Shown here piece after piece: positions 24,214 to 40,638 of a DNA stretch of 64,000 bases (positions are counted from its first letter, which is position 1; each line of letters starts with the position of its first letter). Made by a program: the position numbers and the translations under genes. Origin of the DNA: an uncultured Pseudobdellovibrionaceae bacterium (lineage in GTDB: Bacteria; Bdellovibrionota; FAC87; UBA2466); NCBI GenBank assembly GCA_964492125.1, contig CAZBJE010000003.1, positions 27,788 through 91,787 of the forward strand, in the 5' to 3' direction. The notes under the pieces were generated by a model that was not told the origin of the DNA, did not search any database, and saw only the letters and a program-made list of their open reading frames with translations.

Positions 24214-25604
24214 TCAGTCTCCTTGTTCAAGCCAGTATTTAGCGTAGCGCCCAGCGCCTGCTTTCGCAAGTGGGTGCCGAAAGCCCGCATGACCACTAGA
24301 TGGGCGAGTGCTTGCGTAAACTTATAGACGTACCAGGGGAGACGGGGGCGGTATTCATGCAGGGCGGCGAAAAAAGTTTTACCGTCGAGACTCAAGCGGA
24401 ACTCCAATCGCCCTCGGCCTACTTTTTTAGTCAACCATCCTTCGCGGATATAAAACAACGCCCGATCGGGCGTGCTGCGCTCTTTAGAGAGCTCCAATAC
24501 TAGGAGCGCGCGATTACCAATAGAGAAGCGGCAAAAGCCATCTTTTTCGACTTTCACATTGAGTAGCCAAGGAATGAATGTAGGGAGCCAGCGCATGTAT
24601 TCCTCCCCTAACCAGAACGCATCGCGGCCCGCAGGGCGCGGTAAGCGTTGCACGCTGCGGACGTCCGGATCGGCCGTGGCCGGGCGGTAAGCCCGGGGTC
24701 GCAGGCCTTGTTCTTGCGCAAGACTGTCTTCGAGGCTTTTGCGAAAACTGGTTCCGACGACACCGGCGGCCAGTTGCCAGGTGCGGTTGCCGGCCACCAT
24801 ATCGTGTCGCAAACTTTGAACAAGTGGTTGAACAAGGGCTTTAGGGGCGCCCGTAATCAGAGATACCCAGAGCCGAGAAAGACCTGGCGTGAAAAGTGGA
24901 AACCGCGCTAGCCACCGGTGCTTGTCCAGTACTTCTGAAGTCATCGCGATCATCTCTCGGTAGCTCAGTACATCCGGCCCACCGATGTCATGAACGCCGC
25001 GCGATCGTTCTGGGTGTTCCACGCAATAGGCGAGCAACTCCACGACGTCGTCTAATGCGATGGGTTGGGTGAGCGACTCCGTCCAGCGCGGGCAAATCAT
25101 CACTGGTAATCGTTGTACGAGGCGCACCAGCATTTGAAACGAAGAACCTTCTGGTCCGACGATCAAGCTCGCCCGCAACGTAGTCACGGGAATACCGGCC
25201 GAAGCCAAGGTGCGTTCGACTTCCAATCTGCTAGCCAAATGCCGGGAAAGAGGGCGGTGATTGGGAAGCAGTCCACCCAAGTAAATGATTTGCTTTACTC
25301 CAGCTTTACGGGCGGCCCGGGCAAAATTATCGGCAGCGATCAAATCGAAGTCTTCAAAGCTGCCTTGAGTGAGTCGTGCGGAGGGCAGCATCGAATGCAC
25401 TAGGTAGTATGCGGTTTCCACGCCTTCTAAAGCTCTTTCGGCGTCGAGTAGCGAAAACAGATCGCACGCGCGCCATTCCGATGCGTGGAGACCTTTGGGA
25501 GGGGTTGCAGAGCGAGAAAGGCCGATAACGTGGTGATGGGCATTGAGTTTCTCAGTCAGGGCTTTACCGACGAAACCCGCAGCACCGGCGATGGCTATTT
25601 TCAT
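24210..25604 (-). CDS. NAD(P)-binding epimerase/dehydratase (SDR) family protein with a large C-terminal extension.
   Basis: MKIAIAGAAGFVGKAL Rossmann N-terminus. Start placed at this Met; the upstream extension to 25640 overlaps the neighbouring gene's start. Confidence 0.65.
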   Translation of the reverse strand: MKIAIAGAAGFVGKALTEKLNAHHHVIGLSRSATPPKGLHASEWRACDLFSLLDAERALEGVETAYYLVHSMLPSARLTQGSFEDFDLIAADNFARAARKAGVKQIIYLGGLLPNHRPLSRHLASRLEVERTLASAGIPVTTLRASLIVGPEGSSFQMLVRLVQRLPVMICPRWTESLTQPIALDDVVELLAYCVEHPERSRGVHDIGGPDVLSYREMIAMTSEVLDKHRWLARFPLFTPGLSRLWVSLITGAPKALVQPLVQSLRHDMVAGNRTWQLAAGVVGTSFRKSLEDSLAQEQGLRPRAYRPATADPDVRSVQRLPRPAGRDAFWLGEEYMRWLPTFIPWLLNVKVEKDGFCRFSIGNRALLVLELSKERSTPDRALFYIREGWLTKKVGRGRLEFRLSLDGKTFFAALHEYRPRLPWYVYKFTQALAHLVVMRAFGTHLRKQALGATLNTGLNKETE

Positions 25605-25646
25605 TACTTTGGAGCTCCTACAGTGGGGGCTTTGTATCATATACTA

Positions 25647-26324
25647 ATGCCCATGCCGACTCGCCTTGCCGATCACGGCCCCATTTATATTGAGACTCGG
25701 CTCGATCGCCTCATAGCCGAGCCGTTCAACGCCGCGACCGCTGCCTTGTTCTTGCTTCTCGCACTCGTTTGGCTGTGGCGCTTGCGCGGCCAGTACCGTC
25801 AAAACTATTTTTTTGTTTATTGCGTAGGCATGCTGGCAGTAGGCGGAGTGGGTGGCACGCTGTACCACGGCACTCGCGCCTCACGCTGGTTTTTGGTTTT
25901 AGACTTTCTTCCCATTGCACTGATCTGTCTCAGTGTGGCCGCGTATATCTGGGGCCGTATTTTAAAGCGCGGCCCCGCGGTTGGATTTTTGGTGGTGCTG
26001 GGTTTTTATTTTCCCCTCGCTCTGGGCCGGCATTTCATTCCGATGCCCTGGGCGATTAGTTTTTCGTATTTGGTGATTGGCCTCGCGGTCGTGACTCCAC
26101 TCGTTGTTATTTTGGCGAGGTCCGGCTGGCGGGACTGGCGCCAGGTCGCGGGTTCCTTCGCGCTTTTCTTGGTGGCGCTGGGCTTTCGCGTGGCGGACTC
26201 GGTGGAAGCTACGGCGCGGTTTTTACCGATGGGCAGCCATTGGCTCTGGCATGTTTTTTCGTGGATGGCGGTGGGAATTATTTTGGAATACTTCTACCGC
26301 TACACTAAGGCAGCGGCTGGGTGA
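25647..26324 (+). CDS. Polytopic (about 7 TM) membrane protein, family not resolved.
   Basis: Start re-placed at MPMPTRL because the listed upstream part overlaps the epimerase gene. Multiple hydrophobic helices. Confidence 0.45.
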   Translation: MPMPTRLADHGPIYIETRLDRLIAEPFNAATAALFLLLALVWLWRLRGQYRQNYFFVYCVGMLAVGGVGGTLYHGTRASRWFLVLDFLPIALICLSVAAYIWGRILKRGPAVGFLVVLGFYFPLALGRHFIPMPWAISFSYLVIGLAVVTPLVVILARSGWRDWRQVAGSFALFLVALGFRVADSVEATARFLPMGSHWLWHVFSWMAVGIILEYFYRYTKAAAG

Positions 26325-27156
26325 AGAGAGGCGCCATTTCCCGCCCAAAATCCAACGCATCCCGATTGGCCTCGACCTGAGGGTCGATTTTTTCTTCCTG
26401 CATCTGGTGCACTTCTTGCGAGGGTGTAGGTGCGCGGAAGCTTTCGTTGCCGAAATAACCCGAATACATTGTGGCGCCGCCCACAAGCGTGGCGCAGGTC
26501 ACCGCGCCGCCGAGGACCGCTACTTTCATCATGGGCAGATGGCCCCAGAAGTCGGCGAAAAAACCGGGCTTGGGTTTGGCCTTGGAGCTTATCTCGCGCT
26601 CTAGCTGGAATTGCAGTCCGGTGATGCCCTTCTTGGTCAGGTAAATATTAAAGGCGCGGCTGAGTTCCTCAAACGTGCTTGCGTGCAACTCTGGCGGGTT
26701 GGCGCGCTGCAGAGTAAAGAATTCGTGGAAATAAGCGTAATGCACCAGTCCTGCGCCTTTGCCTTCGGCTACCGGGTTGGCGGCCTTGGACGCATGCTCC
26801 ACAAAGAGCGGATCGATGTTGGGAATAGTGAGATCCGGTGCTGCCTTCAGGTAGCGGTTGTCCAGAGCGTCCGAGAACGTGCGGTAGAGGCGACTATAGA
26901 GTTCGTCGGTAAGCAACTGCCGTGCGCCGTGGATAACGGCTAGGCGCGCGCGTGCTTGTTCGTCGTCTAGGTTCTGATCGGCGTGCGTGCGGGCGACGAG
27001 CGCGTCGAAGTCGGTGGAAATAGATTCCATCGTTTGCGGCAAGCTGATTCGAAACAGCCGGTACATATTTGCGCCGTCGGGGTTCCATTCGGGTGGAACA
27101 GGCGAAGCGGATACCCAGGTCGAGAGCAGCAGGAAGAACATTCCCCAGTATTTCAT
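26305..27156 (-). CDS. Signal-peptide protein with a C-terminal TM anchor; third gene of the OMP-lipoprotein operon.
   Basis: MKYWGMFFLLLSTWVSASP start. Its ATG overlaps the upstream stop as ATGA. TM MMKVAVLGGAVTCATLVGG near the C-terminus. Confidence 0.45.
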   Translation of the reverse strand: MKYWGMFFLLLSTWVSASPVPPEWNPDGANMYRLFRISLPQTMESISTDFDALVARTHADQNLDDEQARARLAVIHGARQLLTDELYSRLYRTFSDALDNRYLKAAPDLTIPNIDPLFVEHASKAANPVAEGKGAGLVHYAYFHEFFTLQRANPPELHASTFEELSRAFNIYLTKKGITGLQFQLEREISSKAKPKPGFFADFWGHLPMMKVAVLGGAVTCATLVGGATMYSGYFGNESFRAPTPSQEVHQMQEEKIDPQVEANRDALDFGREMAPLFTQPLP

Positions 27157-29993
27157 TTGCGCGATCCTTCGGCTTGGGCGAATTGCATGCAGCGTTCTTG
27201 GGTGCCGTCGGTTTTGAGTTCTGCGCGTTTTTGAGCCGCATTTTTGGTGAAGTCGAGATAGTCCCATCTGCGGGCGGCGGTTTCGTAAAGGCAAAACGCA
27301 AACCGGGCCGCTTTATCGAGCGCGGCGTCGTTGCCCCCAATTTGGGATTCTACGCCGGTGACGTATTGGCCAACGTAATTTTTGATTTGTCCCTCGGTCC
27401 ATTGCACGGGAGTCGATTCGGTCATGTTTAAGACTCCAGGGAAAATGCCTCCATCGCGCGACAAGCGAGCCTCTTGTGCGGGGTCGAAGGCAGGGGAGAT
27501 GAAGTTGTCGACGCCATCGATAAACGCATCCACTTTTTCAAAGTAGTAGTTGCGGGTCTTGTCGCGAATGATCCGCTCGAAGGCGGTAAAGCCCTTTTTG
27601 CCGCGGATCATTTTGGTCCAGCCGCGTTCACGGGTGTCTTTGGGATCGGTCAGAGCGGAGTGTACCGAATTCCAGCGATCGCGGACGCTAAACCACGATT
27701 CTTTTTGAGCGCGCCGTTCTTGGGGCGCCGAACAGACCAAAGTGCTCTTGATGGCAGCGCCGGCCTTTTGGGAAATTTCTAGAATAAAGCGCTGAGGAAT
27801 AACCAACACACAGTTACGCACCATCAGGTGCAGTTGCGCCGTGATCTCTTCCTTGCTCAGTGTGATCGTATCAACGGAACTGACCCGGGATCTTTGGCCG
27901 TCGCCGGCTGACATCTCCTTGATACGGTACCATTCGGCTTCCTTGTTGAAGGCCGTATTAACAGAGGCCTCATTACCCATCACGCCGTAGCCCAATGTTG
28001 AGGCGACCCCCGCTACGAAATGTTCGGAGTTCTTGTCGGCGGCAATAGTGCGGTCGGTTTGTTGGTGCTCGTTGAAAAAACTCACCGCCAGGGCACCAAA
28101 GTAGTTATTGGTACTGCTTACTTGGGGTGCGGTGTTCAAGACTTTTTCTGTGATGGTGAAGTGGTTGAGATGGAAAAACTCCGTCGGTTTGCGCTGGCAC
28201 TGAGCGGACTGCTCGGCATTTAGGCCCAGTTTGGTATTGCAAAAGGGTGCCAGTAGCGCAGGCGCTTTTTCCGCCAGGCCTTCTCCTTCGGATTGTACGA
28301 AACCAGACAGCGCATCCCAGCGAGAGTCGCCGGCCGTCCAGGTTTTCCAATTGCCCCAGCTCTTGGGTGCATCGGCTAATGCTAAAGCCGTGAGGGGGCC
28401 ATAGCCCTGCCAGTATTTTTCAAAAAGCGCGAGTGGGGAATCTCCCCATTCTACCTTAAGTGCGTAGGCGGTCCCGCCCTGGGAAGCGATCTTGCGCACG
28501 CGATCAAACGGAATGGAAACCCAGTGTCCAGGGCGGCTTCTATCGGAATCAATCGATTCGCCCGCAGAATTGTCGTTGCCGTTAGGGTTGGAGACAAACG
28601 GGGCGGAGAACTCGAGCGGTTCCACAATTCCTTTCTCTTCAGAGAGAGGAGTGAGCGTAATTTGCAGACGGGCGCGTGCGTCCAAGCGGGGTTGTTGGGT
28701 GAAATCGATGGCGAACGTGACAGGGGTATTAATCTGGTTTTGCTCGTCGACTTGAACTTCCGATTCATACGCGCCCAAAAAAGCTTGTGCGGCGCGGTGG
28801 GTATCCGGTTCCACCATCGGATCCACCAGTACCAACGACATTTTGAAACGAGTGCCCGGCTGCAGCACCTGCGGATCGGGTTTGCCGCTGGGGTTAGGGC
28901 GAGTGACGGTTGGTCGGAGGGTGAGATTCCATTCCCGCAACGTAGTGAGCTGCAGGTGTTCGTTGAGTTCAAAGCCTCGGCGTAAAAAGAAGGCACTGTA
29001 GTTTTGCAAATTCAACTTAGCGGTCCCGCCGGGCAGGTAAGAAGGAGCGCCTTGTCGACGTAAATCGCGGTAAAAAAGATCGCCCCGCTGCCAGGGATTT
29101 ACAGCAATTTCCACCGCTCGGGTCTCGCCTTCGGATTGGCGAGAGCGCAGTAAAATGAAGCGGCGTTGGTAGTGCTCGGGCGCTTTGGCCAGCTCCAGAT
29201 AACTCAACTTGCCCTGCACCGGCAGATCGCCGCTCGAGTTGGAGGTGGCCTGCGTGCCTACGGCGCCGGCGGGCCACTCGGTAGAGTTGGCAATCAGGTA
29301 TTCAAAGGACTCCCCAGCCAGCGGTTTACCGCGATCGGCAGGGTCCACGACTCGCACTTCGGCCGAAAAGCCCACGGTGGTTTGGGTTGATTTGGGGTCG
29401 TAGCTCACCACCCCGTTGAATGAGCCGCGCGATCCGTCGGTTTGAAAAGAATGCGACGGACCTTGCTGTTCGCCTTCACCGGTCAACGAACGCTCGGCTT
29501 GATCTTCCGACACGGGTGGAATGGCCAGCCGCACGGTGCGCAGATCAGCCAATCCGTTGCTGCCCTCTATCCACGGGTTAATCGCAATGGGGATTTCCAC
29601 TTTCACTCCGCCGCTTTCAAGGGTGCGAGTGAAGCGGATGAAAACTTGGTTTTTCACTCGAGCGGCAAAGCGCACTTCTTCGGTCCAGTATAGGCAGCCA
29701 AAGGCGTCGGAGGGGGAGAGCGGGCTGCTCGCTTCGTTGCGCAGAAGGTTGAAGGCTTGGTTGGCGACTGCCTGCCGGCTGGCGCGGTCGATGGCGCAAA
29801 CCTTAACGTGGTAGGCCTTGTAGTTGGGTAGCCCGGAAGTGGGATCCACTTCGAGCGTTTCCGTGTGCACCGGCGACACGGCCGATAAAATAAAAGGCGC
29901 ACTATCGCCCGTTGCGGCTACGGGGGGCGTGACCGACTTAAAAGAACAGCCCACGAGTAAGCAGGCCGCTATGAGGTATTTAGAAAACCGCAT
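27153..29993 (-). CDS. Large (946 aa) lipoprotein, no recognisable domain.
   Basis: Lipobox CLLVGCS. Single long ORF. Start overlaps the upstream OMP gene by 14 nt. Confidence 0.55.
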   Translation of the reverse strand: MRFSKYLIAACLLVGCSFKSVTPPVAATGDSAPFILSAVSPVHTETLEVDPTSGLPNYKAYHVKVCAIDRASRQAVANQAFNLLRNEASSPLSPSDAFGCLYWTEEVRFAARVKNQVFIRFTRTLESGGVKVEIPIAINPWIEGSNGLADLRTVRLAIPPVSEDQAERSLTGEGEQQGPSHSFQTDGSRGSFNGVVSYDPKSTQTTVGFSAEVRVVDPADRGKPLAGESFEYLIANSTEWPAGAVGTQATSNSSGDLPVQGKLSYLELAKAPEHYQRRFILLRSRQSEGETRAVEIAVNPWQRGDLFYRDLRRQGAPSYLPGGTAKLNLQNYSAFFLRRGFELNEHLQLTTLREWNLTLRPTVTRPNPSGKPDPQVLQPGTRFKMSLVLVDPMVEPDTHRAAQAFLGAYESEVQVDEQNQINTPVTFAIDFTQQPRLDARARLQITLTPLSEEKGIVEPLEFSAPFVSNPNGNDNSAGESIDSDRSRPGHWVSIPFDRVRKIASQGGTAYALKVEWGDSPLALFEKYWQGYGPLTALALADAPKSWGNWKTWTAGDSRWDALSGFVQSEGEGLAEKAPALLAPFCNTKLGLNAEQSAQCQRKPTEFFHLNHFTITEKVLNTAPQVSSTNNYFGALAVSFFNEHQQTDRTIAADKNSEHFVAGVASTLGYGVMGNEASVNTAFNKEAEWYRIKEMSAGDGQRSRVSSVDTITLSKEEITAQLHLMVRNCVLVIPQRFILEISQKAGAAIKSTLVCSAPQERRAQKESWFSVRDRWNSVHSALTDPKDTRERGWTKMIRGKKGFTAFERIIRDKTRNYYFEKVDAFIDGVDNFISPAFDPAQEARLSRDGGIFPGVLNMTESTPVQWTEGQIKNYVGQYVTGVESQIGGNDAALDKAARFAFCLYETAARRWDYLDFTKNAAQKRAELKTDGTQERCMQFAQAEGSRK

Positions 29994-31077
29994 ACTGAGT
30001 ACTCAACTGCACCTGCACCCAATCCAATCCGGACTGGTAGGGGTTACTAGCCAAAACACTCGAGTGAACCCAGCGCACCGATGCGCCGATGCCCGACCGC
30101 CAGTCGGCGGCAAGCGCGGCACCAAATCCAGCGCGGTTCGCATGACCGAAAGCCCGGTCATTGTAAAACGCAGGGGCCGTGTCGGAATCCACTCGAAACC
30201 ATTCAAATTGGGGTGTTAGACGAAGCGTTGCCGACGCATCCCATCCCACTGCTCCAGAAAAGCGCCATCCGACCGATTTGTCGCGGGGCGCTGCGGCATT
30301 TTGGATGAGCGAGGCGTGCAGTTTGGGGTGAAGGTTCCCCACGCGCCCTTGCGCGCCCGCGCTCCACTCAAAGCCAGAAAAGCCATATACGTAGGTGGTT
30401 CCGGCGTCTTGGCCTTGAACCGTGTTGCCCAGAAACTGCGCTTGGTAGGCGGTGGGGCCGGCTAGGTTTTCGAAAAGAAAATGGGAAACGTTGAGCGTCA
30501 CACCCCATTGCTCGGAAGGGCTGTACCCCAGCGCCACACGTTCCATGTAAAAGCCCGGCATTCCCTGCGGCCAATTTCCCCAAGGTTGTAAAGAGGAGGT
30601 ATCCGCCGGCACGGCCTGTTGCGCCTGGATCGATAGAGAAAACGCGCCCCATTTCTGATCGAAGCTTTGCAAGATTGCGGGAAAAGATTGCCGCTGCAAA
30701 AGCAGGGGGGATTCCCAGCGCGCCTGATCGATTGCGCCGCCGACGAGACGCAATGGCGCTATCGGGTTCCAGGTTACTTGGGCTTCGCGAAGGCGCTGGA
30801 TTTGGCGCGCCTGGAAGTCATTTTGGAAACGGGCGCGCGAGGCGCCTGTTTCGAGCTGTACGCTACCGGCTACACGCACCTCCACATTAGGAGCGAGTGG
30901 CTGGGTGAGTGCTGCTTCAATCTCAGTACCGGCGATCCGGCTTTGGTTGTGCTCGCTTTGGGCACCAAAGCCATACAGAGCCAAGCCCAAGCGCAGACTT
31001 TGGGTGGCTGGGATCTCAGCGCCCCAAAGGCAGGCCGGCGCCAGGAACCAGGCAAAAAGGAAGAATTTGGGCTGCAT
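29980..31077 (-). CDS. Outer-membrane beta-barrel protein (C-terminal ...YAVF).
   Basis: Signal peptide MQPKFFLFAWFLAPACLWGA. Alternating amphipathic strands. Terminal aromatic-X-Phe. Confidence 0.5.
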   Translation of the reverse strand: MQPKFFLFAWFLAPACLWGAEIPATQSLRLGLALYGFGAQSEHNQSRIAGTEIEAALTQPLAPNVEVRVAGSVQLETGASRARFQNDFQARQIQRLREAQVTWNPIAPLRLVGGAIDQARWESPLLLQRQSFPAILQSFDQKWGAFSLSIQAQQAVPADTSSLQPWGNWPQGMPGFYMERVALGYSPSEQWGVTLNVSHFLFENLAGPTAYQAQFLGNTVQGQDAGTTYVYGFSGFEWSAGAQGRVGNLHPKLHASLIQNAAAPRDKSVGWRFSGAVGWDASATLRLTPQFEWFRVDSDTAPAFYNDRAFGHANRAGFGAALAADWRSGIGASVRWVHSSVLASNPYQSGLDWVQVQLSTQYAVF

Positions 31078-31165: not shown

Positions 31166-33706
31166 TTAAACCACAATATTAACCAGGCGATCGGGGACGA
31201 TAATCACCTTTTTTGGTGGTTTGCCTTCCATCGCGGCTCTGACTTTCTCCGAAGCGAGGGCCTGGGCTTCTAACGCTTCTTTGGCAATCCCGCGTTCCAC
31301 TTCGAGTTTGTCGCGTAGCTTGCCGTTTACTTGGACCACGATGGTGAGGGTGGAATCTTGGCAGAGGCTTTCCACATGGGTCGGCCAGTCGGCGCGCGCG
31401 ACGATTTGTTTTTCCCCGAGCCGTTCGCACAGTTCCTCAGCCAAATGCGGAGCATAGGGGGCCAGCGCTTTTAGAAACATCAAAAGCGTTTCGGTCGGCA
31501 GGGTTTTGCTGCCGGTGGCTTCGTTGACGAAAATCATCATCTGGGAAATCGCGGTATTAAACGCGAGTTTTTCGGTGTCTTCCCCCACTTTTTTGATTGT
31601 GCGGTGGAGTGTTTTCCACAGAGCGGGTTCGGAAGCGCCCGGCTCTTTGGTAATTTTGGTCGAGAATTCTCCCGTTTTATCGTCGACTACCAGGCGCCAC
31701 ACCCGCGCCAGAAAGCGCGAAACGCCTTCCACCCCTTCCATGCTCCAGGGTTTGGTTTGCTCTAAAGGCCCCATGAAAAGTTCGTACAGGCGCATGGCGT
31801 CCGCGCCATATTGGTCTACGACGTCATCGGGGCTGACGACGTTGTTCTTGGACTTCGACATTTTTTCGATTTGCGAATGCACGCTGTTGCCGGTGGCTTT
31901 GACCACGGGTTTGCCTTGGCGCTGTTCGATTTCGCTGGGGTGGTAGTACTTGCCGGCGTCATCCCGGAAGCTGGTGCCCAGAATCATCCCTTGGTTGAAA
32001 AGTTTTTGGAACGGCTCCTTGGTGTGCACCAAGCCGCAGTCAAAGAGCACCTTGTGCCAGAAGCGGGAGTACAAGAGATGCAGCACGGCGTGCTCCACCC
32101 CACCGATGTAGAGGTCCACCGGAAGCCAATAATTTTCCGCTTCTTTGGACCAAGCAGCATTGGCGTTCTTGGGATCGGTAAAGCGCAGGTAGTACCAGCA
32201 CGAGCCCGCCCATTGCGGCATCGTATTGGTCTCCCTCAGGCCGGTCCGGCCGTCGGGCAATTTCACTTCACGCCAATCCTTGGGCGCGCGCGCGAGCGGC
32301 GGTTGCCCGTCGGCAGTGGGACGGTATTCGTCGATAATCGGCAATTCCACCGGGAGCGAATCTAAAGGCACGGCAGCCACTCCGCCGTCGGCGGTGTGGA
32401 TCAGCGGAAAAGGCTCGCCCCAATAGCGCTGGCGCGAAAAGAGCCAGTCGCGCAGGCGGTAGGTCACGCGCGGTGTACCGGCACGCTTGGCTTCGAGCCA
32501 CTCGATCATTTTGGTTTGGGCGTCCGCGATTCCCAGGCCATCGAGGAACCCGGAATTTACCAAGGTGCCGGTGCCTGTGTGGGCCGCTTCGGCAACGGGT
32601 TTATCACCGCCGGAAATGACTTCCTTGATTGGCAATTTATGCTGGAGAGCAAACGCGTGATCGCGCTCGTCGTGGCCAGGCACGGCCATCACGGCGCCGG
32701 TGCCGTAGGTCATCAAAACGTAGTCCGCCACCCAGATAGGCAAGCGCTCGCCGGTTACGTGGTGGGCGGCGTATGCGCCGGTAAAAACGCCGCTCTTATC
32801 TTTGGCGAGATCGGTCCGCTGCAGATCGGTTTTGTTGCGAACCTCGGCGAGGTATTTTTCGACTTCGGCTTTGCGTTCGGGCTTCGTGATTACTTTGACC
32901 AGCGGGTGCTCGGGTGCCAGAACGGCGTACGTAACCCCCATAAAAGTGTCTGGGCGGGTAGTGAATACTGCAAAACTTTGAGTCGTGCCTTCAATGGAAA
33001 ATCGGATTTCGGCGCCTAAGGATTTTCCAATCCACTCGCGCTGCATTTCCTTCACACCTTCGGGCCAGTCGAGGGTATCCAGATCCGCGAGCAAACGCTC
33101 AGCGTACACGGGAATCTTGAGCATCCACTGCTTCATTGAGCGGCGCTCCACGGGGTCGCCGGTCTCAACATATTTTCCGTCTTTAACTTCTTCGTTGGCG
33201 AGTACCGTTCCGAGGGCAGGGCACCAGTTTACCGGCACTTCGGCGAGGTACGCCAAGCCCTTCTCATAGAGCTTGAGGAAGATCCACTGTGTCCATCGGT
33301 AGTAGTCCGGATCTGTCGTGCTAAATTCACGACTCCAGTCGTAACTGAAACCGAGCCGTTTGATTTGGCGTCGAAAGTTGTCGACGTTGGTTTTGGTAAT
33401 CTTGGCAGGGTGAATGCCATCGCGCATGGCGGCGCGCTCCGCCGGTAAACCGAACGCGTCCCAGCCCATGGGGTGCAAAACGTTAAAGCCTTTCATTCGC
33501 TTGAAGCGCGCAACCACGTCAGTGGCTGTGTAGCCTTCAGGATGGCCCACATGTAGGCCCGCGCCGGAGGGGTAGGGAAACATGTCTAAAACGTAGAACT
33601 TCGGTTTGCGCGGAAGTTCGGCTGGGTTCAGGGGTAACTCAAAACACTTTTCAGTGTCCCAACGTTTTTGCCATTTCGGTTCAATAGAAGCTGGATCGTA
33701 TTGCAT
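31166..33706 (-). CDS. leuS: Leucyl-tRNA synthetase.
   Basis: [17 protein letters not shown]-terminus plus HVGHPEGY (HIGH-type) and KMSKS motifs. Start at the Met matching the canonical LeuS N-terminus. Confidence 0.9.
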
Positions 33707-33793
33707 GGTGCGGTAGTAAAACACGGAAGGCCGCGGGCCGTCTAGCCGAGACGCGATTCCGGACCCTCTCTACGGCGTTCCGCTTGGGAACAC

Positions 33794-35005
33794 TTGTCGC
33801 GTTTCTTGCAGGGCTGCTCCCTCCGGAGGTGTCCTTTGCGCATACTGAAATTATTTTGGATCTTGGCCCTGGTTGGTTGTGGAGAAAAAACAGAGTCCGG
33901 CCCGTCGAACCCATCCGCCGCTCCGCCACCTAGTGTAGCCACCTCGCAAGGCGTCCCACCCTCTGCGGGTCCCATTCCGCCGTTGCGTTCTGCTTCGATG
34001 GTCAAAGCCCAGCTGATCCCTTTGGCCGCGGCCGGAAAATACGAAATAGCCTTGGAGTGGGAAGCCGAGGGTGTTTTCGCCGAAGAATGGTGGGTGCAAA
34101 GAGTGAAGCCGGCCGAAGGCGCGCGCGTGATGGTTCGGCTACCTGCCCAGGCGCGCCGGTTTACGGTGGTCGACGTCGCATTGGGAGTCGATCATGAATA
34201 CCGAGTATTTGCGCATAACGACGGAACCAACGCCGAAATCGGCGCGGTCGCTCTGCACCCTCATCCTGACCGCGTATTTACCAAGGGTGAATATGTCTGG
34301 AAAGGTGGCCAGTATGGCCGGCTGTTTTTTGAATTCGGTTCCATAGTTTGGATCGGGGACGAATTTCCCATGGACTTGGATTTGTTGGAACTGCATTCCG
34401 ATGGCGGGATTATTCGCAACTATTATAACCCCGCAGCTCCGGGCCACGCGGGTTTGTCCAGCGCACCCCTACGCTTGAAGGTTGGGCTAGCTCGCGGGGA
34501 TCTTCAATTGATCACCGATGGCCAAGGCGGGGGCCAAGGGTTGGAAGGGGCGCCCGGCGCGCCCGGTGCCGCGGGAAAAGATGCTTTTGCGGGTCGTTGG
34601 GAGGGGTGGTCGCGGCTGGTGGAAGGGACTTCAGGATTTTACCAGCGCGAGTCTCCGCGCCCGGCCGAACGAGGTTCTGTGGGCGGTGATGGCGAGAAAG
34701 GGGGAATGGGGTGTAGAGGGGGCGATGGGGGCGCCATCACGCTTATCGTCGATAAAAATGCCGGATTCTGGCCGCGCCTCTCTAGTGAGGGAGGACCGGG
34801 TGGCCCCGGGGGCGCGGGCGGAAAGCCAGGACCGGGCGGTCTCGGCGGCAAGGGAGCCGCGGCGGTTCCTGGGGGCGGTCGGGAGTGGCCCGCCGCCGCT
34901 GAAGGCCCGAGCGGAAACCCCGGAACACCCGGAAAGCGGGGCGCCGACGGTAAGACCGGGCGCCAGATCGTGAAGCTGGGCGAGGTGGAATTCCGTCGTC
35001 CCTAG
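33794..35005 (+). CDS. Lipoprotein with a Gly/Pro-rich collagen-like C-terminal region.
   Basis: Lipobox ALVGCG. Start is TTG at 33794 or TTG at 33836 (MRILKLFWILALVGC). C-terminal GAPGAPGAAGKD...GGPGGPGGAGGKPGPGG low-complexity region. Confidence 0.45.
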   Translation: MSRFLQGCSLRRCPLRILKLFWILALVGCGEKTESGPSNPSAAPPPSVATSQGVPPSAGPIPPLRSASMVKAQLIPLAAAGKYEIALEWEAEGVFAEEWWVQRVKPAEGARVMVRLPAQARRFTVVDVALGVDHEYRVFAHNDGTNAEIGAVALHPHPDRVFTKGEYVWKGGQYGRLFFEFGSIVWIGDEFPMDLDLLELHSDGGIIRNYYNPAAPGHAGLSSAPLRLKVGLARGDLQLITDGQGGGQGLEGAPGAPGAAGKDAFAGRWEGWSRLVEGTSGFYQRESPRPAERGSVGGDGEKGGMGCRGGDGGAITLIVDKNAGFWPRLSSEGGPGGPGGAGGKPGPGGLGGKGAAAVPGGGREWPAAAEGPSGNPGTPGKRGADGKTGRQIVKLGEVEFRRP

Positions 35006-38000
35006 CCGCCTACTTTGCCGTGCCCCGCGAAGTCCACCACGTCGCCCCGGGGACTAATGACTTGGAACGTAAAATCGTAGTCTTCCTTTTTGGGTGGCAC
35101 ACCACTGAGTTCTCCCGCCGGTGCGAGCAGAAGCCATTTGGGGCCTGTCAGCATTTTGTAACCGTAGGGCCAATTGCCGAAAACCTTTTTCAGGTTAAAG
35201 GCAAAGAGCTCCCCAGTGTAAGCAGTAGGGATACGAACTGGGTTTTCCTTGGTGGATGGCCGTGGCACGCTACCAGCGATATTCACTTTGACCACCGCCT
35301 CGGCGGGCTCGCGCTGGGCGTCCAATACACGGACAACGATTTGCTGCTCGCCCGCATCCCGGACGGAAGGTTTGCCAAAAATCTGCCCATTGGGTGCCAC
35401 AATCGCCCAGGCGGGTCCGCGCACCTTCTCAAAAGTCAGAGTGGCATTCGGATCGCTGTCGGAGGCAAGGCTGCGCACGCTAGTGCTAAACATTTCGTCC
35501 GCGCGGGTCGTGCCCAGTTCCACGTTTTGGCGCGCCCATTTCGGTGCGTGGTTTTTGTACAGAATTTCGAGCTTAAATGTGGCCGGCGCCGACTTGAGAT
35601 CGTTTGCCACCTCCACCGTCAAAGTGTGTTTGCCGACGTGATCGTCGGTGGGGCTACCGCTAATCGCTCCGGCGGCCGAAATGTTCACCCAATCCGGACC
35701 AGCGGTTTTGGCGAATTTAATCGGCAAACCATCGAGGTCCCGAGCTTCCGCTGCAAGGCTAAGCTTCATCGGTTCCCGTGCTTTTGTTTGGAGTACGATT
35801 TTTTTCTCGTTCCAAACCGGCGGGCGCGGATCGCGATCTACCTGCACTTGCAGCACAGTATCGATGCTCGATTCGGCGTCGGCGATTTTCAAATGGAACG
35901 TGTGCTTACCAATTTGGGCAAAGGCAGGGTTGATCTGAAAACTGCCATTGGGCTCTAGCAGCACCCAGGGCGCGTTCTCTTTGAGGGTGAACGAGAGGCG
36001 GTCGCGATCAATATCAACAACAAAGCCTGGTTCGGCCAAATTCCAACGGCAGGCACCGCGCTCTTTACAAGTAAATACCCGTTCGCCCGCTGCTAAGGTG
36101 GGCGGGTGGTTTTTGGTCTTCACCACAAGAGTAACGGTTTTCGGCGAGGCCACATCGCGGTTGTCGGCGGCGATCACAAAACTAACGGTCCCTGCGTCGG
36201 TATCTTGCGGCTCGGCGGTCAACTCTCCGCTTTGCGAGAGTTTGAGCCAAGGTGGGCTGGATACCAATGCAAAATTAAACGGCTTGCCGTCTAGGTCTTT
36301 CACTTTTCCCGCGAATGAGGTTTTGAAAGGTTCGCGGGTTTGTAGGTTGTACACCAGTTTATCTTCGTTCCATTGCGGGCCGCGCGGGTTGCGCAACACC
36401 GTCAGAACCACCGGCAACTCCACACCGCCTTCTTTGTCTTTTACGCTGACCGTCCAACGGTGCAGACCGATCTGCGCAAATTGGGGCTGCACCGTTAGCG
36501 TGCCGTCCGGCGTGAGTGTGACCCAGTCCGGGGGCGATTTGAGAAAGGTGTAAGTGAGCGCTTCGGCGTCGGGGTCTACTACCGACTCGGATTTGGAAAG
36601 CGAGAGCGTGGCGACTTCCCGCTCCTTAACCGAGGCGTCGAATGGTTTAGCCAGCTGGGGGAGGTAGTTCTTCTTTATGATTTCAAATTGAAACGTGATT
36701 GGCGCGGAGGCTTTGTCGTTAGCAGCCGTGATGACGGCTGCCATTTTGCCGGCGTCAAGGTCCTTGGGTGTTCCGGAAAGTTCGCCTTTGTCCGACACTG
36801 TCAACCAATCAGGGCCACTTACTTTTGTGTAGTGCACCGCAAGACCGTCGAGATCTTTCGCTTGGCCCGCTACCGAGGTTTTAAAAAGTTCGCGGGTCTT
36901 TAAAGCAAAAGGTGCCGGGGCGGCCGAAGTCCAAACGGGAGGCCTCGGGTTGCGGGCCACTGTGACCACCACGGGCAAATCGACGCTGGCCTCGGCGTCC
37001 TTGGCCGAGACGGTAAAACGGTGTTGTCCGATCTGGGCGAACGCTGCTTGAGTGGTGATTTCGCCGTTGGGTGCGAGCGTTACCCAATTGGGTAGTTTAG
37101 CCGCGGAGAAAACGAGCGCTTCGCCGTCGGGATCCACGATGGCGCCGGATTTCGCTAGAGAAACCAAGCCGGTATCGCGTTCCTTTACTGTGGCCTCGAA
37201 TTCCTTCGCGGCGAGTTTGGGAGGGTAATTCTTTTTAGTAATTTGGAACGCAATGCGGGTGCTGGCGGTGGCGCCATCGTTCGTCGCGTTCACGCTGAGA
37301 GTGGCGCTGCCTGCGTCGGTATCAGCTGGGGTGCCGGAGAGTTCCCCTTTTTCGCTGACGGTAACCCAGTCCGGGCCTGTAGCTTTGCTAAATTTGATCG
37401 GCACACCATCTAGATCTTTGGCTTTGCCGGCAAGGCTCGCCTTAAAAGCTTCCCGAGTTTTGAGCGTGAAGGGCGCGAGTTCCGTCCACACCGGCGCGCG
37501 TGGGTTGCGGGTAACGGTAAGTACCACTGGAATATCGACCGACTGCTCTTTGTCTTTGGCGGCCACTGTGAATTTGTGTTGGCCGATTTGGGCGTACAAG
37601 GGAGAAACCGTAAGGCCACCGGCCGGGGTTAGCTGCACCCAGGCCGGTAGTTTGCTGGCGCTAAATTCCAACGTTTCTCCGTCTGGATCGACTACGCTGC
37701 CAGAAGTCGCCACCGACAAAGGGGTGACATCCCGCTCTTTCACGGTCGCGGCAAATTCTTTCACTAATTTAGGAGGGTAATTTTTCTTCACCACTTCCAT
37801 GCGCAGCTTAACGGGCGCTGACTGCAGATCGTTTGCGGCTGCGATTTCGATTTGGGTGGTGCCGGCATCGGTGTCGATCGGGGTCCCACTGAGTTCTCCT
37901 TTTTCGGAGACATTCAACCAAAGCGGACCCGCGACCTTGGAAAAGCGCACGGCGAGACCATCGGCGTCCTTGGCCAGCCCGGCGACAGAGAATTTATAGG

Positions 38001-40638
38001 GCTCGCGTGTTTTTAAAGTCAGTTCAGGGGTGGACTGCCAAACGGGCGGGCGTGGGTTGCGGGCTACTGTGATGGTGACGGGCAATTCCACCGAAGCTTC
38101 CCGGTCGCGTACCGTGACGGTCATTTTATGTTGGCCGATTTGGGCGAATAAGGGTTTCAAAACCAACTCGCCGGCCGAGCTAAGAGTGACCCACGGAGGC
38201 AGTTTTGCGGCGCTAAAAGTAAGGGGCTCGCCGTCGGGGTCCAGGATATTGCCGCTTGTCGCTAGATTAATCGAAGGAGTTTCTCGCTCTTTCACTGCCA
38301 CTTCCAGTGGTTTTGCCAGAGTGGGCGGGTAATTCTTTTTAACGATCTCAAACGTGAGCGTCACGGGCGCGGAGGCTCCGTCGTTAGTGGCACTGATTTC
38401 AACCGTCGGACGGCCCGCATCCAAGTCCGCTGGAGTGCCGGATAGCTCTCCTTTTTCGCTAATATCGATCCACGCAGGCCCGCGCAGCTTCTTAAATGTA
38501 ATAGCGACTCCATCGAGATCGCGCGCGTACTTGGCAATATTGCTCTTAAACGCTTCCCGGGTTTTTAAAGTAACTGCCGGTGGCGGAATCCAGATAGGCG
38601 CTTGCGGATTGCGTAGCACCGTCAGCACAATCGGTACTTCCACTCCCGCTTCCCGATCCCGTGCGGTCACCGAAAACCGATGCACCCCTACTTGGGCAAA
38701 AAGCGGTTTAACCGTAAGCACACCGTCCCCGCTTAGGGTGATCCAACTAGGAAGCTTGGTGGCGCTGAAAACCAGCGTTTCGCCGTCGGGGTCCACTACG
38801 CTGCCGCTAGCCGCAACGGCCAAGGTGGAGACCTCACGTTCTTTGGCCGAGGCCTCGTATGCTTTCGCCAAAGTGGGAACGTAATTCTTTTTGGTAATGT
38901 CGAGCACGACGGTAGTTGGTGCAGAAGCCAAATCGTTCGAGGCGACCAATTCAACCGTCCGTTGTCCGGCGTCGGAATCGGACGGAGTGCCGGAAAGTTC
39001 GCCTTTGTCGGAAACCAAAAGCCATTCCGGTCCCCGCACTTTTCTAATCGTCACGGGTAAGCCATCGGCGTCTTTGACTGCGTTGCCAACCGATGCCTTG
39101 AAGACAACCCGAGTTTGCAGAGCGAAAGCGGGCGTGGTTGACCACATCGGCGGTCGCGGGTTGCGCGTTACGGTGACCACCACGGGCAATTCCACCGCCC
39201 CCTCTCGATCGCGGGCGGTTACGGAAAAACGGTGGACCCCGATTTGTGCAAAGAGCGGCTTGGCAGTCAGTTCGCCGGCCGCGCTGAGTGTTATCCAGGC
39301 GGGAAGTTTGGTCGCGGCATAAGTGAGGGTTTCTTGATCGGTATCGCTGACGACACCCATCTGCGGGATCTGAACCGGAGTGGTTTCTCGCTCTTTTAGA
39401 GAGATCTCCAGCGGCTTTGTTACTACCGGCAAATAGTTCTTTTTCTCGATGGCAAAACGCACCGGCAGTTCGGCGGACAGCAGATCGTTGCGGACTACCA
39501 GAGTGGCCTCGCCTTCTCCCGCATCGCGATCGGTAGGGGTACCGGAGAGTTCCCCTGTGGGGGCGACTGCGAGCCATCCGGGTCCGCGGCCTTTGCTAAA
39601 AGTAAGCGCGATCCCGTCGGGGTCTTTGGCCAGTTTGGCGACAGAGGCGGTGAAAGCCTCGCGGGATTTCATTTTATAGTTTGGCCCCTCTGCCACCCAG
39701 GTGGGCGGGCGGGGATTGCGTTCTACCGTTAAGGTGAAGCTACCGGCCGTGGTGAGCGCGCCGTCGCTCACAGTAAATCCCACGGATTGTACGCCGATAT
39801 CAGCGAAACTGGGTTTGGCGGATACTTCGCCTGCCGCGGTGATGGTGAGCCAGGGCAATGGCTTGGGATTTTTCAACGTGAACGTGAGTTTATCGGTTTC
39901 GTTGCGATCGCTAGCGTAGCGGGAAAGATTGGCGGTGAAGGGTTCTCGTTCGCGCGCCTTGAAGCCGATTTCCGGTTTGAGGGCGGGGGAATAATTTTTC
40001 TGGGCAATCTTGCCTTGGATTTGGAGTGTCGCTTTTTTCTCGCCGTCGCTCACTTCGATGCGAGCCGAGAGATCGCCGTGGCTACCTTCGGGAGGAATCC
40101 CCGCAATTTTGCCCGTCGCAGAAACAGTGAGCCATTCAGGGCCGCGGCTTTTGGAAAAGGTAAGCGCGTCGCGATCGGGGTCGGTTGCCTGGTGCACTAA
40201 ATCGTAAGCCACCGCTTTTTCTTCCAGCATATCGGGGAGGGTGAATTCGCTGGTCGTCCAGGTGGGGGCGCGGTTACCGATGAAGGCTGATACAGGTACG
40301 GCACTAGCCCCTTTGCCATCGCGCGCTTCCAGGCTCCAGGTTTGTGCGCCGCGATCGTTGGGTCCGGGCGTACCGCTGAAGCTGCCGTCGGGAGAAACTT
40401 TGAGCCAAGCGGGCCCGCTGCCGGCAACCATGCGGTAGGTGATCGGATCGTTCTCGGCGTCTTCGGTTTCGTTGGCTGGAACCTTTGCTTCAAAAGCCGC
40501 AGCGCGAAACGCTTCGCCCAGATCAATATTCGAAATTTTCCACCGTGGCGGAGTGTTGACCGGGGTGGGAGCGGGGGGCTGAACGGGAGCCGCCCAAATA
40601 GTTGTCGTCACCAAAATCCAACCCAGTAGATTTCGCAT
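35002..40638 (-). CDS. Giant (1878 aa) secreted surface protein built of tandem Ig-like domains resembling putative Ig (He_PIG) / dystroglycan-type cadherin-like domains.
   Basis: Signal peptide, then about 9 units of a ~190-aa two-domain repeat (RNPRPPVW...KGELSGTP.D.DAG...KKNYPP.LAKP...DPDGE.L.FSA.KLP.W.TL...FAQIGQH.F.V.A.D.E). Confidence 0.7.
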   Translation of the reverse strand: MRNLLGWILVTTTIWAAPVQPPAPTPVNTPPRWKISNIDLGEAFRAAAFEAKVPANETEDAENDPITYRMVAGSGPAWLKVSPDGSFSGTPGPNDRGAQTWSLEARDGKGASAVPVSAFIGNRAPTWTTSEFTLPDMLEEKAVAYDLVHQATDPDRDALTFSKSRGPEWLTVSATGKIAGIPPEGSHGDLSARIEVSDGEKKATLQIQGKIAQKNYSPALKPEIGFKAREREPFTANLSRYASDRNETDKLTFTLKNPKPLPWLTITAAGEVSAKPSFADIGVQSVGFTVSDGALTTAGSFTLTVERNPRPPTWVAEGPNYKMKSREAFTASVAKLAKDPDGIALTFSKGRGPGWLAVAPTGELSGTPTDRDAGEGEATLVVRNDLLSAELPVRFAIEKKNYLPVVTKPLEISLKERETTPVQIPQMGVVSDTDQETLTYAATKLPAWITLSAAGELTAKPLFAQIGVHRFSVTARDREGAVELPVVVTVTRNPRPPMWSTTPAFALQTRVVFKASVGNAVKDADGLPVTIRKVRGPEWLLVSDKGELSGTPSDSDAGQRTVELVASNDLASAPTTVVLDITKKNYVPTLAKAYEASAKEREVSTLAVAASGSVVDPDGETLVFSATKLPSWITLSGDGVLTVKPLFAQVGVHRFSVTARDREAGVEVPIVLTVLRNPQAPIWIPPPAVTLKTREAFKSNIAKYARDLDGVAITFKKLRGPAWIDISEKGELSGTPADLDAGRPTVEISATNDGASAPVTLTFEIVKKNYPPTLAKPLEVAVKERETPSINLATSGNILDPDGEPLTFSAAKLPPWVTLSSAGELVLKPLFAQIGQHKMTVTVRDREASVELPVTITVARNPRPPVWQSTPELTLKTREPYKFSVAGLAKDADGLAVRFSKVAGPLWLNVSEKGELSGTPIDTDAGTTQIEIAAANDLQSAPVKLRMEVVKKNYPPKLVKEFAATVKERDVTPLSVATSGSVVDPDGETLEFSASKLPAWVQLTPAGGLTVSPLYAQIGQHKFTVAAKDKEQSVDIPVVLTVTRNPRAPVWTELAPFTLKTREAFKASLAGKAKDLDGVPIKFSKATGPDWVTVSEKGELSGTPADTDAGSATLSVNATNDGATASTRIAFQITKKNYPPKLAAKEFEATVKERDTGLVSLAKSGAIVDPDGEALVFSAAKLPNWVTLAPNGEITTQAAFAQIGQHRFTVSAKDAEASVDLPVVVTVARNPRPPVWTSAAPAPFALKTRELFKTSVAGQAKDLDGLAVHYTKVSGPDWLTVSDKGELSGTPKDLDAGKMAAVITAANDKASAPITFQFEIIKKNYLPQLAKPFDASVKEREVATLSLSKSESVVDPDAEALTYTFLKSPPDWVTLTPDGTLTVQPQFAQIGLHRWTVSVKDKEGGVELPVVLTVLRNPRGPQWNEDKLVYNLQTREPFKTSFAGKVKDLDGKPFNFALVSSPPWLKLSQSGELTAEPQDTDAGTVSFVIAADNRDVASPKTVTLVVKTKNHPPTLAAGERVFTCKERGACRWNLAEPGFVVDIDRDRLSFTLKENAPWVLLEPNGSFQINPAFAQIGKHTFHLKIADAESSIDTVLQVQVDRDPRPPVWNEKKIVLQTKAREPMKLSLAAEARDLDGLPIKFAKTAGPDWVNISAAGAISGSPTDDHVGKHTLTVEVANDLKSAPATFKLEILYKNHAPKWARQNVELGTTRADEMFSTSVRSLASDSDPNATLTFEKVRGPAWAIVAPNGQIFGKPSVRDAGEQQIVVRVLDAQREPAEAVVKVNIAGSVPRPSTKENPVRIPTAYTGELFAFNLKKVFGNWPYGYKMLTGPKWLLLAPAGELSGVPPKKEDYDFTFQVISPRGDVVDFAGHGKVGG
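35950..39750 (-). repeat. Intragenic tandem DNA repeats (~570-nt unit, about 7-9 copies, diverged) encoding the Ig-like repeat units.
   Basis: Periodic recurrence of RNPRPPVW / KKNYPP / DPDGE motifs in the translation. Approximate boundaries. Confidence 0.55.

Follow-up and report, generated by a model that had tools for sequence, protein, structure and literature searches.

Complexes between an outer-membrane β-barrel and a lipoprotein, among them LptDE, SusCD, Slam and BtuBG, are central both to the way in which Gram-negative bacteria build their envelope and to the way in which they interact with what lies outside it. Here, we describe a further barrel-lipoprotein pair, without sequence relationship to these, encoded within a three-gene locus in 64,000 nucleotides of DNA (hereafter the window) from an uncultured Pseudobdellovibrionaceae bacterium (GenBank assembly GCA_964492125.1, contig CAZBJE010000003.1, positions 27,788 to 91,787 of the forward strand). 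Judged from sequence comparisons, the pair is an undescribed family that is found across the Bdellovibrionota and, among members with a named source, is restricted to them; it is confined to a phylum of predatory bacteria and remains unannotated despite 238 public cluster representatives. The reading that we favour, and to which we give roughly even chances, takes the products of the locus to be a self-contained outer-membrane module, in which a specialised 16-stranded barrel and its cognate large lipoprotein form a stoichiometric complex and the rod and head of the lipoprotein are displayed at the cell surface. The evidence that carries this reading is the arrangement of the genes, the persistence of the pair across lineages, and the predicted architecture of the two proteins.

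The open reading frame (ORF) listing and a direct reading of the junctions confirm three overlapping genes on the minus strand: the barrel gene (29980..31077, 365 amino acids (aa)), the lipoprotein gene (27153..29993, 946 aa) and a third gene (26305..27156, 283 aa counted from its ATG). The first junction reads CAG TAT GCG GTT TTC TAA, with the lipoprotein ATG embedded inside a Tyr codon (TAT-G) four codons before the barrel stop, which gives an overlap of 14 nucleotides (nt; 29980..29993, minus strand). An identical overlap, with the ATG lying within an xAT-G codon four codons ahead of the barrel stop, occurs in all 13 adjacent barrel-lipoprotein pairs, very divergent ones included, and the N-terminus is compatible with it in 80 of the 115 complete members of the superfamily. 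Because every adjacent pair keeps the same geometry, however divergent, we do not regard the overlap as a product of chance; and since that geometry is kept while identity falls to ~20% for the lipoprotein and to ~24–29% for the barrel, the sequence comparison argues for selection on coupled translation. The invariance of the overlap further suggests that barrel and lipoprotein may be made in a fixed, putatively 1:1 ratio by translational coupling and act as one complex. The junction is an unusually clean case of dual coding, in which the same bases encode the barrel's C-terminal signal (Y-x-x-[FLI]-stop) and the n-region of the lipoprotein's signal peptide (M-x-x-x-[KRNS]), and it provides a simple rule by which mis-called start codons can be fixed and family members spotted. 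In two related loci, L007 (8073-8103) and L010 (7318-7432), public gene calls had picked a wrong downstream ATG that left the signal peptide truncated or absent; starting from the overlapped ATG recovers signal peptide and lipobox in both (MTYSKILSF...LTGCSFK and MTFYRFTLAALLLAAGCSFE, respectively). At the second junction, the lipoprotein stop and the third-gene start share an ATGA (27153..27156, minus strand, by direct reading), with a Shine-Dalgarno-like GAAGGA motif 9 nt upstream of the third-gene start, and an overlap of 4 nt or 1 nt is found at the same junction in L001, L003, L004, L005, L008, L010 and L017. The original prediction for this stretch had named both overlaps and read them as a sign of translational coupling, and in each respect it stands. 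A scan for promoters and terminators gave no informative signal in the gap between leuS and the barrel gene or 3' of the third gene.

How widely the lipoprotein appears to be shared depends strongly on how it is searched for. A word-indexed search of 5.8 billion proteins returned six close homologues of the lipoprotein, 16 of the barrel and, beyond the query itself, one of the third protein. Searching exhaustively with HMMER and a profile of the lipoprotein raised the count to 238 representatives at E<=1e-3 (103 at <=1e-10); on the word-indexed search alone the lipoprotein would have seemed an orphan. Every superfamily member whose source is named is a hypothetical protein from a metagenome-assembled genome (MAG) of Bdellovibrionota, Bdellovibrionales or Oligoflexia. 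The order leuS-barrel-lipoprotein-third gene recurs in eight further loci of distinct sequence (L001, L003, L004, L005, L007, L008, L010 and L014; L002, L006 and L009 are duplicates of three of these), all of them uncultured MAGs of Pseudobdellovibrionaceae type, encoding barrels of 361-370 aa, large proteins of 741-1102 aa and third proteins of 273-286 aa. A scan of one genome per species, covering 185,579 species, found five loci, three of them labelled uncultured Pseudobdellovibrionaceae and the remaining two filed under the uninformative MAG labels 'Pseudomonadota bacterium' and 'bacterium', while metagenome scans with alignments A2 and A1 added no new loci.

Beyond this clade, four more distant contexts show what is retained. 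The lipoproteins P0007 (locus L011), P0049 (L017), P0122 (L019) and P0167 (L020) each lie downstream of a homologous barrel gene (hhalign probability 98.4%, 100%, 99.9% and 98.8%, respectively), and in none of the four is leuS adjacent; a third gene, of similar architecture, is present in L017 and missing from L011, L019 and L020. As the pair persists in distant lineages and the third gene is missing from three of them, the conserved unit is the barrel-lipoprotein pair. The suggestion that all three genes would be conserved together is thus borne out in every close relative, where the order is kept, and gives way to the pair outside the clade; the block is nonetheless co-conserved, and nothing in it matches a known enzyme family. 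Gene neighbourhoods vary between lineages and offer neither a metabolic theme nor a functional clue, and since they differ from lineage to lineage, the pair should carry a function of its own. In L020 (3150-13420), lpxC lies two genes upstream of the pair and a BamD/YfiO-like gene and lptF/G lie downstream, a context that the other lineages do not share. Literature searches found no description of the barrel-lipoprotein family, and a Pfam scan of 52 family members gave scattered single matches only (VWD, CEL_III_C, OMP_b-brl and bMG3) with nothing consistent among them.

None of the three proteins has a significant sequence match in Pfam, NCBIfam or the Protein Data Bank (PDB), in keeping with the earlier inability to assign any of them to a described family; for the barrel and the lipoprotein, Pfam and NCBIfam hold nothing at E<=1 except a sub-threshold DUF6514. 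The first protein nevertheless has the hallmarks of an outer-membrane β-barrel: a signal peptide (aa 1-~19, MQPKFFLFAWFLAPACLWGA...), a C-terminus that reads ...LSTQYAVF before the stop, as had been anticipated, a C-terminal Y-x-x-F/L/I in nearly all homologues, and a 16-stranded AlphaFold2 (AF2) model (mean pLDDT 82.6, pTM 0.77) built from a 16-sequence alignment. Foldseek matches that model to porins only (OmpC/F, OccD/K, OprB, OmpM1 and AlgE), all of them 16-18-stranded, at TM 0.45-0.59 and ~10% identity, with probability 1.0 and TM 0.55-0.59 for the 16-stranded OmpF/OmpC, OprB and OmpM1. The barrel is of the porin fold class, yet it belongs to no porin sequence family. Its connections alternate between short turns of 2-6 residues and long loops, and in the usual topology of such barrels the N-terminus is periplasmic, so that the long connections are loops that are extracellular or folded into the lumen and the short ones face the periplasm. 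Conservation is uneven along this axis, with the loops highest (mean column conservation 0.65 overall, 0.72 in loop L3 and 0.79 in loop L7), the strands intermediate (0.58) and the periplasmic turns lowest (0.43). This is the reverse of general porins, in which the external loops are the most variable part, and it suggests that the outer side of the barrel has either a specific partner or a built-in constriction.

A constriction is what would be expected were the barrel a specific diffusion channel, taking up a substrate that the lipoprotein captures and hands over as a lid, in a TonB-independent version of the logic of SusCD or BtuBG. The porin-like fold, the conserved L3-like loop that could build the constriction and the pairing with a lipoprotein all accord with such a channel. 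It would, however, be one without a plug domain, a TonB box or a 22-strand barrel, served by a lipoprotein in which no binding-protein-like fold is recognised and whose variable Ig-like rod (described below) is superfluous for a lid, in a setting where neighbouring genes have no metabolic theme. We consider uptake very unlikely, the least probable of the explanations weighed here.

A specific partner is most simply sought in the neighbouring lipoprotein. The 946-aa protein begins MRFSKYLIAACLLVGC followed by SFK, a canonical lipobox with Ser at +2; the presence of a lipobox, one of the earlier claims, is therefore confirmed. In the ORF listing and the alignments the lipobox spans L13-V14-G15-C16 (29946..29957, minus strand) and is followed by the conserved S17-F18. 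The close clade shows no variation at C16, S17 or F18, 'SF' is the most frequent pair after the Cys across the superfamily, and nearly all superfamily members, 115 of the complete ones among them, carry a lipobox of the signal peptidase II type ([LVI][ASTVI][GAS]C). Under the Lol rule of E. coli, Ser at +2 would place the mature protein in the outer membrane. The conserved residues right at the lipid-bearing Cys (CSF) could serve as an export tag, and this, with the strict adjacency of the two genes and the conserved barrel loops, is what speaks for a relation limited to export, in which the barrel would be a translocon dedicated to flipping its lipoprotein to the cell surface, in the manner of Slam and type XI secretion, without a stable partnership thereafter. 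A catalytic translocon, however, does not call for synthesis in a fixed 1:1 ratio; the barrel is 16-stranded and lacks both a periplasmic (TPR-like) domain and a DUF560 match; and a 16-strand lumen is small for the passage of folded, disulfide-bonded domains. We therefore think export alone improbable.

Behind the lipid anchor, the lipoprotein appears to be built from a variable rod and a conserved head. Its AF2 model, made from only six sequences, is poor overall (mean pLDDT 47.9) and rises to 60-80 in three β-sandwich blocks, which together with predicted secondary structure delimit a variable N-terminal rod of three predicted domains (aa ~34-140, 184-300 and 325-465; 28599..29894, minus strand). 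Domains 1 and 2 form an internal repeat, each closing in ...NPW; homologues of 790-801 aa are without domain 1, other members reach 1100-1450 aa, and across the family length ranges from ~690 to 1450 aa. Foldseek matches for the rod are to RTX-adhesin repeats, to the MG domains of complement C5, TEP1 and α2-macroglobulin and to intimin D00-D0, with probability 0.9-1.0 and with TM of only 0.06-0.15 from this weak model, and no Big Pfam domains are found in the lipoprotein. The N-terminal half is accordingly modelled, and predicted, as tandem Ig/MG-like β-sandwiches whose number varies across the family. The protein had been described as lacking any recognisable domain, which remains true of the sequence libraries and is no longer apt for this predicted half.

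The conserved superfamily core (aa ~575-857; 27423..28271, minus strand), defined by its invariant columns in the column analysis, contains the candidate disulfide pairs C585/C599 and C728/C754, the motifs ESW[FY], ERGWTK-IRG and RDGGIFPGV, and four amphipathic β-strands. It is followed by a helical C-terminal extension (aa 858-946; 27156..27422, minus strand), delimited by alignments, AF2 model and profile coverage, which bears a C901/C935 pair. Four Cys pairs are thus present in the mature lipoprotein, with 585/599, 728/754 and 901/935 invariant and 66/100 confined to the variable domain 1; as predicted disulfides they fit an oxidising compartment. The C-terminal extension occurs only among those superfamily members that are accompanied by a third gene, as far as the few contexts allow: both are found in the window clade and in L017, and neither in L011, L019 or L020, a small sample.

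The third protein itself starts MKYWGMFFLLLSTWVSASP..., from an ATG at 27156 that gives 283 aa; the mechanical ORF list begins at an upstream TTG, and the ATG is preferred because both the signal peptide and the homologues support it. A cleavable-type signal peptide (aa 1-~17) is followed by a soluble, helical domain of ~185 aa, a single hydrophobic helix that contains an invariant Cys (aa ~207-231), and a tail rich in Pro, Gln and acidic residues; conservation is poor (21-32% identity). The counterpart in L017 shares this layout, from the signal peptide through a helical domain and a hydrophobic helix containing Cys to a tail rich in Pro and Gln. A signal peptide and a C-terminal membrane helix had been predicted for this protein and are present, while the cytoplasmic tail predicted with them is not upheld: positive charges cluster before the hydrophobic helix, not after it, and if anything argue for the opposite orientation. 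A J-domain was considered and rejected, as Pfam DnaJ scores 18.8 bits (E 0.0018) against a cut-off of 27.8, and the position of the HPD motif reads 'HAD' and is not conserved in seven homologues; J-domains are the top PDB matches of the family profile, but at E 0.045 or weaker, and at most the protein has a J-like helical fold, which carries no functional inference. On its distribution and its rate of change the third gene is a clade-specific, fast-evolving accessory, and its product probably binds the C-terminal extension of the lipoprotein. At its 3' end the gene overlaps by 20 nt (17 nt in L004) a convergent plus-strand gene (25485-26324) for a ceramidase-like multi-pass membrane protein, with a Pfam match at E 8.6e-7 that is under the cut-off.

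The co-occurrence of third gene and extension also lends itself to an explanation in which the whole assembly faces inwards. The lipoprotein would be held by the barrel on the inner face of the outer membrane, its rod would cross the periplasm, and its head and extension would engage a third protein anchored in the inner membrane, as a trans-envelope tether of structural or signalling function. The signal peptide, soluble domain and single hydrophobic helix of the third protein are suited to such a partner, the lipoprotein and third gene are coupled through their ATGA overlap, and a rod of at least three Ig-like domains is of the right order of length to span the periplasm. Most of the superfamily, however, is without the third gene, and yet the pair persists. 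The periplasmic turns of the barrel, at 2-6 aa, are short and its least conserved part, with no obvious docking surface among them, and the positive charges before the helix of the third protein are contrary to a simple type-I inner-membrane anchor. We regard a periplasmic tether as unlikely, although it comes closest to the surface module among the alternatives.

For the surface module we envisage the following. The lipoprotein would have the build of a tethered adhesin, with an N-terminal lipid anchor, a variable Ig/MG-like rod and a disulfide-stabilised conserved head; the long loops of the barrel may form the site at which it docks or through which it passes; and rod and head would be presented at the cell surface. 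In the window clade, a third membrane protein, coupled through ATGA, would join the lipoprotein by way of the helical C-terminal extension. The balance tips slightly towards surface display and away from a periplasmic orientation; any role of the barrel-lipoprotein module in prey contact would be putative. Several points weigh against this account. The overlap could have been partly 'frozen' by dual coding, its conservation then owing less to selection on stoichiometry, and contact between barrel and lipoprotein is putative. Surface exposure is something that we infer, from loop conservation and the adhesin-like layout only, and lipoproteins of proteobacterial type are periplasmic by default; the apparently periplasmic domain of the third protein would also fit better with a periplasmic rod. 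The AF2 model is uninformative in the core (pLDDT 20-35), which leaves the head without a usable model. Finally, in L018 (7001-9511) the 836-aa member P0082 is not immediately preceded by a barrel gene and breaks the overlap rule at its N-terminus, the sole exception among 14 contexts.

A further possibility for the head comes from a hairpin seen in distant members of the family. Three family profiles were searched against the PDB (alignments A4, of 73 full-length sequences; A6, of 33 trimmed cores; and A7, of 30 members of a distant subfamily), and almost every match returned by any of the three is to the hairpin with which a β-pore-forming toxin enters the membrane: that of ε-toxin (E 0.07, over residues 114-170 of 6rb9), of monalysin (with A7, at E 0.015), Cry23, Cry51, the 2β2-2β3 region of anthrax protective antigen, CdtB, Ib and Vip1. 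Amphipathic transmembrane hairpins arise in aerolysin-type toxins through the refolding of pre-stem loops (PMC7914777), and in the ε-toxin pore the β-hairpin domain comprises residues 95-173, with a membrane part at 119-148 (PMC6572795), such that the family's match falls inside the hairpin domain. Distant members such as P0055 have two strands of ~40 residues, with Ser at alternate positions and a hydrophobic tip. For alternation of Ser/Thr/Gly/Asn/Gln, 33 of 146 members score z>=3, and in 52 of 97 it lies within the expected region, against ~19 by chance; PDB matches to the hairpin of these distant members come at E 0.015-0.09. It is conceivable from these observations that the superfamily is a lipid-anchored, barrel-partnered, membrane-inserting device of the Bdellovibrionota, in which the hairpin of the head would refold into an oligomeric β-barrel in the prey envelope or in the cell's own outer membrane. 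The rod would hold the head to its target, for instance the outer membrane of the prey where the two cells meet, and the barrel would export or position it. The window clade would be a derived form, its hairpin shortened and a third subunit gained.

The toxin matches are, however, all sub-significant (E 0.015-5) and confined to the hairpin, and may reflect composition alone; we therefore read them as resemblance and not as homology. Neither the window protein nor any of 52 family members gave an Aerolysin or ETX_MTX2 Pfam match at E<=1. The Ser/Thr signature is also missing throughout the clade of the window, its own protein included (z -0.5 to -1.2), and what these proteins retain is a short amphipathic β-hairpin of 2 x 14 residues with a GNE turn (aa 656-689, ...SEHFVAGVASTLGYGVM-GNE-ASVNTAFNKEAEWY; 27927..28028, minus strand). 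The alignments make this hairpin a homologue of the long one with alternating Ser/Thr in the distant members, but it is an ordinary feature, possible in any β-sheet domain. A Kyte-Doolittle period-2 moment, tried as a test for transmembrane hairpins, was discarded as not discriminating, as ordinary β-sandwich strands score highest. Both pore formation by the hairpin and the superfamily-wide device built upon it seem to us improbable, to about the same degree as export alone; were the hairpin of the distant members to be functional, the family would be a candidate for the machinery by which prey envelopes are breached.

The remainder of the window adds several observations that stand apart from the module. 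Upstream lies leuS, encoding leucyl-tRNA synthetase (31166..33724, minus strand), which ends 88 nt upstream of the barrel gene, and beyond it a plus-strand gene (33794-35005) for a 403-aa putative lipoprotein with a lipobox LALVGC, a Gly/Pro-rich, collagen-like C-terminal half (GGPGGPGGAGGKPGPGGLGGKG...) and no match in Pfam. In L001-L006 and L008-L010 the equivalent slot, divergent from leuS, is occupied by a gene of 362-390 aa, which is absent in L007. The next gene (35002-40638, minus strand) encodes a giant protein of 1878 aa, whose counterparts in the same slot upstream of leuS (L001, L003, L004, L005 and L007) have He_PIG, cadherin-like and Big_9 matches. Further away, a 1421-aa protein (55112-59377, minus strand) has two or more AAA ATPase modules together with AAA_lid_6 domains, and is followed 10 nt downstream by a gene for a 276-aa protein without a Pfam match (54272-55102, minus strand).

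Set against known systems, the favoured module is close in outline to LptD-LptE, the plug-and-barrel translocon for LPS, in that a barrel and a cognate lipoprotein are presumed to form one unit in both. Proteobacteria, E. coli among them, have lptE immediately after leuS, the gene that the window module also follows. The likeness does not extend further: LptD has 26 strands and a β-jellyroll/OstA-like N-domain, in contrast to 16 strands and no N-domain in the window barrel, and LptE has ~190 aa as against 946. The analogy was rejected on the lack of any LptD, OstA or LptE profile match at E<=1, on strand number, and on the absence of leuS linkage in L011, L017, L019 and L020; adjacency to leuS is constant only within the window's clade, and is therefore a matter of synteny, not of function. 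In Slam and type XI secretion, which serve lipoproteins such as TbpB and fHbp, barrel and lipoprotein genes are also neighbours, and the window barrel may likewise bring its lipoprotein to the surface. Slam, however, combines a DUF560 barrel of 14 strands with a TPR domain in the periplasm, whereas the window barrel has only a signal peptide before strand 1 and gave no match to DUF560 in Pfam. The earlier likening of the locus to surface-lipoprotein export or trans-envelope machines is a possible analogy at most, as the features that define Slam, LptDE and SusCD are all missing.

Other comparisons each capture one part of the module. The general 16-stranded porins (OmpF/OmpC, OprB and OmpM1) share fold and strand number with the window barrel, but at ~10% identity and without a porin Pfam match, and the window barrel differs from them in its obligatory pairing with a lipoprotein gene. 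SusC/SusD-type pairs combine a 22-strand barrel, a plug and a TonB box with a SusD-like TPR lipoprotein; the window barrel has 365 aa and 16 strands, and Pfam and NCBIfam give no Plug, TonB_dep_Rec or SusD matches in the window proteins. Rod adhesins of the intimin/invasin and RTX types resemble the lipoprotein in joining a membrane anchor, a rod of Ig-like β-sandwiches and a distinct C-terminal head, but in the window the anchor is a lipid and the barrel a polypeptide of its own, Pfam gives neither Big nor invasin domains, and the structural likeness comes at low TM from a weak model. With the β-pore-forming toxins of the aerolysin/ETX-MTX2 and protective-antigen types, the shared element is the long Ser/Thr-lined hairpin of the distant members, which aligns with the toxins' insertion hairpins; the similarity is sub-significant and limited to that hairpin, the family consists of barrel-paired lipoproteins, and the signature is missing from the window protein. 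With LptDE, Slam and its surface lipoproteins, SusCD and BtuBG, the module of the Bdellovibrionota shares a general logic only, that of a barrel and a lipoprotein working together, and no relationship of sequence.

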